Below are positions 52,073 to 62,333 of a DNA stretch of 64,000 nucleotides, one piece after another (position 1 is the stretch's first letter; the number at the start of each line of letters is the position of its first letter). Below the pieces are notes generated by a model. That model was given only the letters and a program-made list of their open reading frames with translations, had not been told where the DNA came from and ran no database searches. The DNA comes from Leucoraja ocellata (lineage: Eukaryota): positions 248,001 through 312,000 of the forward strand of contig JAWMAR010000578.1 in the NCBI GenBank assembly GCA_036785375.1. Reading direction: 5' to 3'. The translations under genes and the position numbers were made by a program.

Positions 52073-52229
52073 NNNNNNNNNNNNNNNNNNNNNNNNNNNN
52101 NNNNNNNNNNNNNNNNNNNNNNNNNNNNNNNNNNNNNNNNNNNNNNNNNNNNNNNNNNNNNNNNNNNNNNNNNNNNNNNNNNNNNNNNNNNNNNNNNNNN
52201 NNNNNNNNNNNNNNNNNNNNNNNNNNNNN
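52073..52229. other. Assembly gap (157 N)
   Basis: Run of n. Confidence 1.
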
Positions 52230-57601: not shown

Positions 57602-57732
57602 GGATTGCCAGACGACCCAGGGATAAACCAGCGCGCTCTCCAGCACCTGTTTGGGGAAGTGGCGGAGCGCTCAACGGACTGGGACCTGTCCATTACCGTC
57701 AGCATGGCCGAGATCTACAACGAAACGCTCAG
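57602..57732 (+). CDS. KIFC3: KIFC3 exon (GLPDDPGINQRALQHLF...SMAEIYNETLR)
   Basis: tccAG / GTACGA, 131 bp, EIYNE motif. Confidence 0.96.
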
Positions 57733-57840
57733 GTACGAGACTGGCCCGAGTAACAGAGGGCTGTGCTCCACGTGTCGCCGTGTTTACGGGTGGGGATAAT
57801 CTGTGGACGTGGTTGCTAATAGTATTTTCTCTTTTTATAG

Positions 57841-57888
57841 AGACCTGCTGGGGTCTGACCCCCAGAAGACTGAGGATCTAACTATGAG
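57841..57888 (+). pseudogene. Truncated, decayed duplicate of the KIFC3 'DLL' motor exon (RDLLGSDPQK...)
   Basis: Strong acceptor ttttctctttttatAG in the correct phase. Encodes DLLGSDPQ, then similarity continues only after a frameshift (LRI*L*). Confidence 0.7.
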
Positions 57889-58984
57889 GTTACTAATACT
57901 TGCACTCTTATGGGAGCTGCATGATTGGTGATTGGTGCAATGCTTTGGCATGGCTGTGGAGCTGAATTCTGTTTTCATTTTTTATTTTTTTAAGTAATCT
58001 GTGGCCTATTCAGAATTTCCAAGTGCTTTGTGCATCAGTCTTTGCAGTCCTTGGGAGGTTGACTGTAACTTCTGTATTCGTGATGTTATTAGGACACACA
58101 CTCTTGCTTCAGTCCTGTTTGGCAGGATAATGGGCTTTCTGTATCCTCTCTCCTGGTCATATCCCTTCCAGTCATGTGAAAGATTTGATGCAGTCACATG
58201 TGATACAGTGTAATCACTAGTCATTCTGATGTTGAATCTTGGGCATTCCAGCCTGACCAAAGCCATTGAGAGACACGAAGAGAGATTCTCCTCTGTTGTC
58301 TTTTCTCCCACCCCCCTCCCCACGGGAGGTTAAACAACATTTCTTCTTGTGGGATTGAAGAAAATTGGTGTGAGATTCTTTCATCATGGGAAGTCCATGC
58401 ATGAATCCCTTTCCAGTAGGTAACAACAGAATAAATGGAAGGGCAGAATATGTTTACAAGGTGTGAGTATTTATGTGATACAAATTATTTGTGCTCAGAG
58501 GGACCTGGATGTCTTTGTATGCAATTTACTGAATATTCATGTGCTGTTATAGTAAACAATTAGAAAGGAAGTGGTATATTGGCCTTTGTTGCAAGATAAT
58601 TTAAGAATGTTGATGTCATTGCAATTACATAGCGAGCTGGTAAGACAACCCCTGGAATACTATCTATAGGACTGAATGCCTTACGGGACGAAGAATATAA
58701 TTCTCACTGATGGAATGCAGCTGAAACTCTCTGGATTGATACCACGAATAGAAACATAGAAACATAGAATGGCAGGATTGTGTGATGAGATATTAAGCAG
58801 ACTGGCCCTTTACTCTCCAGTTTACATGTATGTGAGCTGATCTCATTGAAATTTGTATTTGCACTAGGCAGGGTACCTACAGAGATGACATATTCCTTGA
58901 TTGAGGTATATGGAACCAGGTCTCAAAGTATGTAGTAAACTATTCAGGGAAAGGACAGGAAGAAAAAATTATATATGTCTTAAG

Positions 58985-59974
58985 GTTATAACCATATAAC
59001 CACATAACAATTACAGCACGGAAACAGGCCATCTCGACCCTTCTAGTCTGTGCCGAACACATAATCTCCCCTAGTCCCATATACCTGCGCTCAGACCATA
59101 ACCCTCCATTCCCTTCCCATCCATATAACTATCCAATTTATTTTTAAATGATAAAAACGAACCTGCCACCACCACCTTCACTGGAAGCTCATTCCACACA
59201 GCTACCACTCTCTGAGTAAAGAAGTTCCCCCCATGTTACCCCTAAACTTCAGTCCCTTAATTCTCAAGTCATGTCCCCTTGTTTGAATCTTCCCTACTCT
59301 CAGTGGGAAAAGCTTTTCCACGTCAACTCTGTCTATCCCTCTCATCATTTTAAAAACCTTTATCAAGTCCCCCCTTAACCTTCTGCGCTCCAAAGAATAA
59401 AGCCCTAACTTGTTCAACCTTTCTCTGTAACTTAGTTGCTGAAACCCAGGCAACATTCTAGTAAATCTCCTCTGTACTCTCTCTATTTTGTTGACATCCT
59501 TCCTATAATTAGGCAACCAAAATTGTACCCCATACTCCAGAATTGGCCTCATCAATGCCTTGTACAATTTTAACATTACATCCCAACTTCTATACTCAAT
59601 GCTCTGATTTATAAAGGCCAGCACACCAAAAGCTTTCTTTACCACCATATCTACATGAGATTCCACTTTCAGGGAACTGTACACAGTTATTCCCAGATCC
59701 CTCTGTTCACCTACATTCTTCAATTCCCTACCATTTACCATGTACGTCCTATTTTGATTTGTCCTGCCAAGATGAAGCACCTCACACTTATCAGCATTAA
59801 ACTCCATCTGCCATCTTTCAGCCCACTCTTCCAACTGGCATAAATCTCTCTGTAGACTTTGAAACTCTACTTCATTACCCGCAACCCCACCTATCTTAGT
59901 ATCATCTGCATACTTACTAATCCAATTTACCACACCATCATCCAGATCATTGATGTACATGACAAACAACAGTG
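58985..59974 (-). mobile_element. Young 5'-truncated CR1 LINE (RT C-terminal ORF, 255 aa) inside an older + strand CR1
   Basis: YINDLDDG, KYADDTK, QRDLGI, YGVQFW motifs and (GGTTATAT)n tail at about 58985-59010. Confidence 0.95.
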
Positions 59975-60057
59975 ATTTTTTTGAAATTCTCTATCCATGG
60001 AAGCTGTGAAGACCTGAAGGTGGGTACATTCGGTACACTAAGGGAATCAAATGAGTT

Positions 60058-60151
60058 GGATACTGAGTTGGATGATCAGCCATGATCATATTGAATGGCG
60101 GTGCAGGCTCGAAGGGCCGAATGGCCTACTCCTGTACCTATTTTCTATGTT
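60058..60151 (+). mobile_element. 94-bp CR1 3' tail insertion with 11-bp TSD TCAAATGAGTT
   Basis: Direct repeats at 60047-60057 and 60152-60162. Confidence 0.85.
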
Positions 60152-62209
60152 TCAAATGAGTTAGCACAGGAAATTGTACGGAGGTAAAGGATTAGCCACA
60201 ATTTTACTGAATTGGAGAACAGGTGTTGTAGTGGTTGTGGGGGTCAGGGGACAATTGGCTAGTCGTATATATCTGTGAGGAGCAGCGTGGTTGGTGCCTA
60301 GGGTGCGCTTCATGGCAGCCGCAGCACCCTGAAACCAAGTCGGACAAACCGCCGAAAGATCAAGCCAAAATTGGAACTACCTGACATCTTTGGCTTTGCA
60401 TCTTCCCTATTCCCCTCCAAAGGAATCTCGGTCCAAACTTTACTCTGCGCTCTAATGGGGCCCGACCTCGAGCTGTGCAAACGCCCTATTTTTCCGCTTA
60501 CTCTTTACACTTAACCTCTGGTGCCGGTTCCTGCTGTTGTGTTATTTTAATCTTTGTGTTTCAGCTAATGTATTCGCTGTTACTTGAGGATGATTAATCA
60601 TGAGAGCGGATCAGTTGTGGGGCTTTGTCATGGGTCTTGTCTGGTCTGGGTTTATCCAATTCCCCTTGCTGCTCACGCATCCATTACACATGGAAAAAAA
60701 TGTTCTGCCACACAGAACTAGTTGATTCCACCTATTTCAATATCAACCTCATTGGGTGACCTTGTGAGTCAATATCATTAAGAATATGTTCTTACTGGAA
60801 TGGGTAGAACATGTGAATGCCTAAATGACAAAAGTCTTTGATATCAATAATTGGGCAACCAACAAATTGCGTCAGTAAAATAAATGCCTCCAGATACAAT
60901 GCAGGGCAGGTGCAGAATTAAACACTTCATTATTTCATCTAAACTGTTCAACAAGCATCGACATGAAGTGCTAGACTGTTTCTGCCGAAATAGGGATGGG
61001 CTGATATTCTGGGTTCTATTTAAGCATGATTGACAATCAAGGAGAATGTGTTGTCGTAATGAGCTCAATTGTTATTGCCAAAGAGAGTAAATCAAACGGG
61101 TTCATCAGAATTGGGCTGTACAACAATTTCTTAAGGAGTTGTAATTTTGAATTTTAGTACAAAACAAATATCTCAGAGGAATCTTTGTGCAGAGTGTGGA
61201 GCAGCTAAAGCCAAAATGATTGATTAATGTTGCCTGACGTTTGAGAAGAAAATTGAATGATGTCTTCGAGAATATAACCTCACTGAAGTTAGTACTGGAG
61301 TACTGTTGAAATTGCTGATGTTTTTGTGATGCCATGTCCTTGATCTCTATTAGCCCTAAGTTCCGGGGCAATTCATGGGCAGGTCATCTTCCCTTCCCAT
61401 ATCAATACCAAAATTGCTTGCATTAGAATCTTCAAACTACAGTTGCAAAAGTTAAAGCCACAACATTGAAAATCTCACCCCATATCCACCTACCTTACAT
61501 TCCTGGTCTTTTTTCGTCTAAATAAGTTTATACTTGTTTCTCATTACTTTCTAATCTGCTGTCCACAGATCCACACACTTACAAGGTCGACCCCAAACTC
61601 CACCTCTTTTTGTTTGACCAAGTACATCTGCATGAATGTACGCATTGGGCAGCCACTCATTATCCCTGGTGATCAGTTTCCAGGTCACTTGTGCCAAGAG
61701 TCTCCCCACTGTTCTCAGTTGCTAATAGAGAGCGACCTTTGTTTTTTACACAGTGATTTCAAAGCTTGTAAATCTCAAACATATCTTAGATGTTGTTTGT
61801 TAGCTAATATTTACTTTTCAGCATTTAGATGTTTTATTATGTTTATTAATGGTGCATTAATGCTTTCAGTGTTATAGGACATATCTATGTGTATTTTTAA
61901 ATAGACTCCTTTAGCAGTGTCCATATTTTATTATCCATGGGGAAATCCATACCCCTATCCCTCAAGTATGAGGATTGGGTGTATTGTTGTGACCATTTGC
62001 AAATTTTCTGTTTACAATTCCACTTCTATGAGCACATAATGTACCCAGGCCCCTCGCTCCCTCTTGTCCAGTGCTTCCTGCTGCTCTGTGTCTGGTGTGG
62101 TCTTTTCCTCATTGTGGTTGTCTGTCTGATGGTGAGGCAATCCCTCTATGGGCATTGGTAACTGCTAAGCTTTTGTTGAGGCCACTAGAATCAACTTATT
62201 TATTTGCAG

Positions 62210-62333
62210 GAACTTGTTGGCCAAAGACCCCAGCGAGAAGCTTGAAATAAAACTGAGTCCTGATGGCAGTGGGCAGCTCTATGTCCCGGGTCTGATTCAG
62301 ATCAGAGTACAGAGTGTGGACGACATCAACAAG
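62210..62333 (+). CDS. KIFC3: KIFC3 exon (NLLAKDPSEKLEIKLSPDGSGQLYVPGLIQIRVQSVDDINK)
   Basis: ttgcAG / GTGAGA, 124 bp. Confidence 0.96.

Follow-up and report, generated by a model that had tools for sequence, protein, structure and literature searches.

A 48-nt in-frame cassette exon in the KIFC3 motor domain of cartilaginous fishes, probably a partial tandem exon copy, is predicted to lengthen loop 8

Is the short stretch of sequence that precedes one of the motor-domain exons of skate KIFC3 the decayed remnant of a duplicated exon, or an exon that is still in use? The window analysed here, a 64,000-nt stretch of Leucoraja ocellata DNA, carries the kinesin-14 gene KIFC3 on the plus strand, with exons that a tblastn map places from about 46847 to past 64000; its features are collected in Table 1. 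The initial annotation saw in this stretch a duplicate exon, decayed after a 2-nt loss and left over from tandem or mutually exclusive exons, which might have been reused as a cassette or poison exon. We find that the exon at 57841-57888 is real, spliced and in frame, and we have next to no doubt that it is a functional cassette exon. A second KIFC3 locus, at C485:1376000-1387500, is 97.8-99.1% identical to the first, introns included, over the roughly 11.5 kb compared, and its cassette and flanks are 100% identical over 197 nt. It is likely the other haplotype and, read in this way, lends the cassette no independent support. A run of 157 N occupies positions 52073-52229 of the window, distant from the cassette.

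Table 1. KIFC3 features around the cassette exon, in window coordinates.
Feature	Position	Strand	Evidence
Upstream KIFC3 exon, ending EIYNETL-R (phase 2)	57602..57732	+	Transcript-contig joints 57011-57602 and 57732-57841; tblastn map; translation
108-nt GT-AG intron	57733..57840	+	Transcript-contig joint; 57780-57840 invariant in two relatives
48-nt cassette exon, phase 2-2, adding 16 residues (DLLGSDPQKTEDLTMR)	57841..57888	+	Both junctions in relatives' contigs; isoforms in 20 species
Weak donor GAG/GTTACT (57889) and conserved downstream intron flank	57889..57976	+	Identical over 88 nt in two relatives; motif positions
Distal 124-nt exon, in both isoforms (NLLAKDPSEKLEIKL...)	62210..62333	+	Joints; translation; alignment to cassette

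Splicing of this exon is seen in Logan contigs from related skates, and all of the splice joints reported here come from these relatives rather than from the window's own species. The phase-2 acceptor, where TTTTTATAG immediately precedes position 57841 as read from the sequence, lies 108 nt after the EIYNETLR exon as the initial annotation had stated, and the joint 57732-57841 (GT..AG) is present in three of three contig runs, in each of which the upstream exon runs on into the cassette. The weak donor that it had proposed is used in two of the three (joint 57888-62210), leading to the complete exon that it had placed at 62210. Between these sites lie 48 stop-free nucleotides that read (R)DLLGSDPQKTEDLTM(R), while retention of the upstream intron brings in an in-frame stop. 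The three runs (X1, X5 and X6) are presumed to be RNA; X6 was flagged as probably DNA, and GT..AG joints occur in all three. Contig depth is 169 over the upstream exon, 130 from the cassette to the distal exon and 16-27 in the intron in X5, and 58, 40 and 4-9, respectively, in X6, which hints at inclusion as the prevailing form in these samples, although contig depth is no measure of inclusion because rarer paths are dropped from contigs. A raw poly(A) run (X24) contributed 46 reads with no joints and an exon depth of 0-3, its read filter being one that depletes conserved exons, so that this result speaks neither for nor against splicing.

Two of the three junctions by which the cassette was to be judged were thus recovered, and the third, the skip joint 57732-62210, is absent among the 15 joints listed of 40 in the relatives' contigs. 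The evidence for skipping is instead provided by database isoforms, which are mostly automatic models. When the window's exons are joined with the cassette, the product is identical to the inclusion isoform of Leucoraja erinacea at 179 of 179 residues, and when they are joined without it, 163 of 163 residues are identical to the skip isoform of the same species.

How widely is the exon shared? Our protein survey took the best 120 of 1028 and the best 120 of 1325 matches, with at most 15 members per cluster; it yielded 447 proteins, 444 of them scorable and three not. Among the proteins listed, 20 of 22 cartilaginous fish species have forms both with and without the 16 residues, namely three skates, three other rays, 13 sharks (galeomorph and squalomorph) and the chimaera Callorhinchus milii, whereas Narcine and Hypanus are each represented by one short model that lacks the insert. 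Exactly 16 additional residues occur at this junction in 51 of the 83 chondrichthyan proteins scored, and the remaining 32 are short. No insert was found at this junction in any of the 361 other vertebrate-type KIFC3 proteins scored, which derive from sturgeons, paddlefish, gar, bowfin, many teleosts, coelacanth, birds and mammals and include teleost-like Logan proteins; amphibians, bichirs, lungfishes and lampreys are not among the proteins listed. In one 30-member cluster of Logan proteins, the nine listed comprise five with the insert, three without and one partial. Within the proteins retrieved, the cassette is therefore confined to cartilaginous fishes. Since both forms occur in elasmobranchs and in Callorhinchus, the cassette predates the split between chimaeras and elasmobranchs, which took place about 400 million years ago. 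One high-scoring protein, P0030 of Acipenser sinensis, was set aside, as it is an unverified model in which the whole motor is repeated, probably an assembly artefact.

The peptide has been kept with a fixed length of 16 residues and a nearly fixed sequence in the 20 species. Mean pairwise identity among 19 elasmobranchs is 89.5% for the cassette, compared with 88.6% for the motor before it, 85.5% for the stalk and 70.5% for the tail, and is exceeded by the 96.3% of the motor after it. Between skate and chimaera the conservation of the cassette does not exceed that of the stalk (10 of 15 residues, 67%, vs 65%). At the DNA level, comparison with DNA contigs of two related skates shows a single synonymous difference in the cassette, in one of the two. 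The same two skates differ at 0 of 120 nt in the fixed 60-nt intron flanks vs 17 of 298 nt of other intronic sequence (Fisher P 0.005). The upstream intron contains CTAAT at 57816, which we take to be a possible branch point, and the downstream flank contains ACTAAT at 57892, TGCATG at 57918 and GCATG at 57948; we regard the first of these as a candidate QKI-type site and the other two as candidate RBFOX-type sites. With 32 occurrences of TGCATG across the window, the chance of finding one within 100 nt is about 5%, and the RBFOX-type motif is suggestive only. From the weak donor and these conserved candidate motifs, we think it probable that inclusion of the cassette is regulated by tissue.

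The long intron downstream of the cassette holds several other features. On the minus strand, 58990-59977 is a LINE-like fragment with a 262-residue open frame, which to our eye resembles reverse transcriptase; in a contig of organism B precisely these 986 nt are skipped, indicating a lineage-specific insertion. A short, very high-copy repeat at 60030-60153, probably a SINE, draws thousands of reads. In the poly(A) run X24, one-strand reads cover about 57790-58300 at a depth of 9-16; coverage tails off around 58430, where the first sense AATAAA lies, and almost vanishes over 60216-62085. Intronic polyadenylation may thus yield a truncated motor ending at a stop at 57929, a reading drawn from a few dozen reads in 6% of one run with exons filtered.

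What kind of exon, then, is the cassette? It has GT-AG splice sites, a length that is a multiple of three, no stop, inclusion junctions in relatives and short isoforms in 20 species, and so behaves as an in-frame cassette. As the initial annotation foresaw, it is a stop-free 48-nt phase 2-2 exon that adds 16 residues, and of its two suggested uses the cassette holds and the poison exon does not, inclusion being in frame and creating no premature stop. The cassette and the distal exon do not form a mutually exclusive pair either, because they are spliced in together, as the joint 57888-62210 and the 51 proteins that carry both attest; they also differ in length and end phase (48 nt, phase 2-2, vs 124 nt, phase 2-0). 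Neural microexons of the SRRM3/4 type are at most 27 nt long and are included specifically in neurons, a size that the 48-nt cassette exceeds. Could the exon still be a neutral insert that the motor tolerates, or else a relic in decay or a poison exon? The weak donor, the tolerance of loop 8 for variation in length and the two rays without an inclusion model would be in keeping with this. However, the frame is open and free of stops, three contig runs join the upstream exon to the cassette, and the fixed length and 89.5% mean identity are not those of a decayed pseudoexon. With the poison and decay readings already contradicted, we consider this explanation extremely improbable.

The origin of the cassette is best approached through its likeness to the distal exon. 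Aligned to the first 48 nt of that exon, it is identical at 25 of 48 positions without a gap, and both sequences end on AG. Among 3919 AG-anchored positions in the window, for which the mean is 12.2, none scores higher; the match is in register with the adjacent exon and exceeds that of the next best site, which scores 24, by one base. The peptide-level match is likewise the best of 3918 positions, with a score of 22 where the next best reach 20-21, and six of the last eight cassette codons, in frame, differ from the distal exon by at most one base. As the alignment is ungapped, the 2-nt loss invoked for decay is unnecessary: the CTG AGG ATC TAA reading is present but out of frame, and it is the in-frame reading that is conserved. 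A by-eye match between the read-through frame and the distal exon was rejected, since its score of 12 falls below the null mean of 16.6. Over the first eight residues, the cassette has five or six matches to tetrapods and coelacanth and the distal exon three to five, whereas over 15 residues the distal exon is generally closer. We read this as a copy whose front may have kept the ancestral motif and whose back half would have changed and then frozen. In bony vertebrates (proteins P0028, P0032, P0250, P0321 and P0056) the single exon starts with a cassette-like DLLGK[DE]xQ in lobe-finned lineages; in sturgeon, gar and otophysans it starts with NLLGDNP, like the distal exon, and in acanthomorphs with DLL. 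The ancestor may have had two copies, which were then lost reciprocally.

On this evidence the cassette very probably has a duplicate origin, and it is likely a tandem copy of the 16 codons that open the distal exon. The proposed duplicate therefore stands for the start of the exon, while a counterpart to the rest is undetectable: the copy spans 48 of 124 nt, and the remainder of the distal exon, sought after the donor, reaches a local alignment score of 29, equalled by 781 of 1206 random windows, and an anchored score of 21, equalled by 383 of 834. An upstream remnant of the distal exon scores 34, vs 15-45 at other acceptors. These scores bear directly on a different history, in which duplication took in the entire exon, perhaps giving a mutually exclusive pair, after which a new donor cut the upstream copy down to 48 nt and the remainder eroded. 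The shared acceptor phase and the 5' match would fit such an event, a gapped alignment, though a loose one, spans the exon, and some 400 million years would erase a neutral remnant. No remnant rises above chance on either side, however, and none of the 444 scorable proteins contains an alternative full copy, nor is there among them an orthologue with the two intact copies that the initial annotation had hoped to find. We hold this truncation to be the less probable course of events, though one worth keeping in mind; it is in any case a different origin with an identical present-day function. It is more doubtful still that intron sequence gave rise to the cassette, which would then have converged on a DLL start because an insert at this junction has to supply beta5 residues. 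The concentration of the peptide match in the first seven or eight codons, and a nucleotide match just one base ahead of the best random site, would suit an intronic origin. Against it, codons 9 and 12-16 are close to those of the distal exon (AAG/GAG, GAT/GAA, CTA/ATA, ACT/AAA, ATG/CTG and AG/AG), beyond anything that beta5 needs, and six of the first eight residues match the exons of tetrapods and coelacanth.

What would a partial copy of the distal exon do to the motor? Aligned to the human KIFC3 motor (5WDE), the insert opens a 16-residue gap directly after the DLL motif, in agreement with the loop-8 placement first suggested for it, and at the same site the loop of Kar3 is longer by eight residues. 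We take the cassette site to be the boundary of beta5 and loop 8 of the kinesin motor. The exon junction falls between R and xLL, so an insert at this point has to open with a beta5 motif of its own, as the cassette does. In the long form, the cassette's DLL would fill beta5 and the distal exon's NLLAKDP would be pushed into a longer loop; in the short form, the distal exon's own NLL would fill beta5. As the copy brings a DLL of its own, we infer that the motor fold would survive either splice choice. AlphaFold models of both isoforms have a mean pLDDT of about 58, falling below 50 over the insert region, and were set aside as too poor to bear on this. The net charge of the insert is -2 in skate and -1 in chimaera. 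A review describes loop 8 as dividing beta5 and facing the microtubule lattice (PMC8232732), and the loop-8 insert of Cin8 alters binding stoichiometry and affinity (PMC5582858). A slightly acidic insert on a lattice-facing loop could weaken or re-tune microtubule binding, and given a net charge of -2 a weaker or altered grip would be the most likely effect. On balance, and judging from sequence, we lean slightly towards a measurable change in microtubule binding or motility. Taken as a whole, a spliced in-frame 48-nt KIFC3 cassette, likely a tandem partial copy and predicted to lengthen loop 8 by 16 residues, is a description in which we have considerable confidence. A bolder proposal is that the cassette forms a splice switch older than the divergence of chimaeras and sharks and retained ever since. 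Through the register swap, this switch would convert KIFC3 in certain tissues, and in mixed complexes, from a minus-end motor that walks to a brake that binds weakly or a static cross-linker; this we regard as speculative and rather unlikely.

Several known systems resemble the cassette in part. The loop-2 inserts A2 and B2 of nonmuscle myosin II are brain-specific and abolish motor activity, as stated in the section of PMC10480317 available to us. Like the KIFC3 cassette, they are optional in-frame exons that add a short peptide to a filament-facing loop of a motor (PMC10480317, same section). In contrast, nonmuscle myosin II is an actin motor, the KIFC3 insert copies a neighbouring exon and its effect is a predicted one. 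Cin8, a kinesin-5, also has its insert in loop 8, where it alters microtubule binding and direction bias (excerpts of PMC5582858 and PMC8232732), but this insert is one of 99 residues, constitutive, disordered and from yeast, whereas that of KIFC3 has 16 residues, is optional and belongs to a kinesin-14. Tandem mutually exclusive exons such as SNAP25 exon 5 share with the cassette a homologous exon beside its parent and the same acceptor phase; unlike them, the KIFC3 copy is partial (48 vs 124 nt) and is included along with its parent. For such co-inclusion, exon H2 of COE/EBF is the nearer model, being a lineage-specific tandem exon duplicate that is included together with its parent and repeats a structural motif, although in vertebrate COE the inclusion of H2 is mandatory whereas KIFC3 keeps both forms (PMC2394523, available in part). 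A retina-enriched microexon in the motor of myosin VI offers a further parallel (PMC9303857, in excerpt).

We found no paper describing the KIFC3 cassette in the literature searched, which omits most subscription journals. The human KIFC3 splice event in the accessible text of PMC8903011 is a 29-nt exon, and a cichlid KIFC3 splice event is given at gene level, with no position, in the supplement rows available from PMC13646608. The cassette isoforms are already present in RefSeq automatic models and so are not unseen, and splice inserts in motor loops are already known as a kind. Our reading of the sequence is nevertheless of a real, ancient and lineage-restricted cassette exon with a probable duplicate origin and an inferred function.

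What is probably a partial copy of an exon has thus persisted as an optional part of a highly conserved motor domain. In centrosome cohesion, microtubules are cross-linked by human KIFC3 (PMC9597181, in the part available), so a change in grip could matter. Were the splice-switch reading true, the cassette would act in mixed motor complexes, like A2 in myosin IIA, and the register swap, if true, would provide a natural 16-residue probe of loop 8. The two isoforms of cartilaginous fish KIFC3 offer a ready test of the role of loop 8 in a vertebrate kinesin-14.
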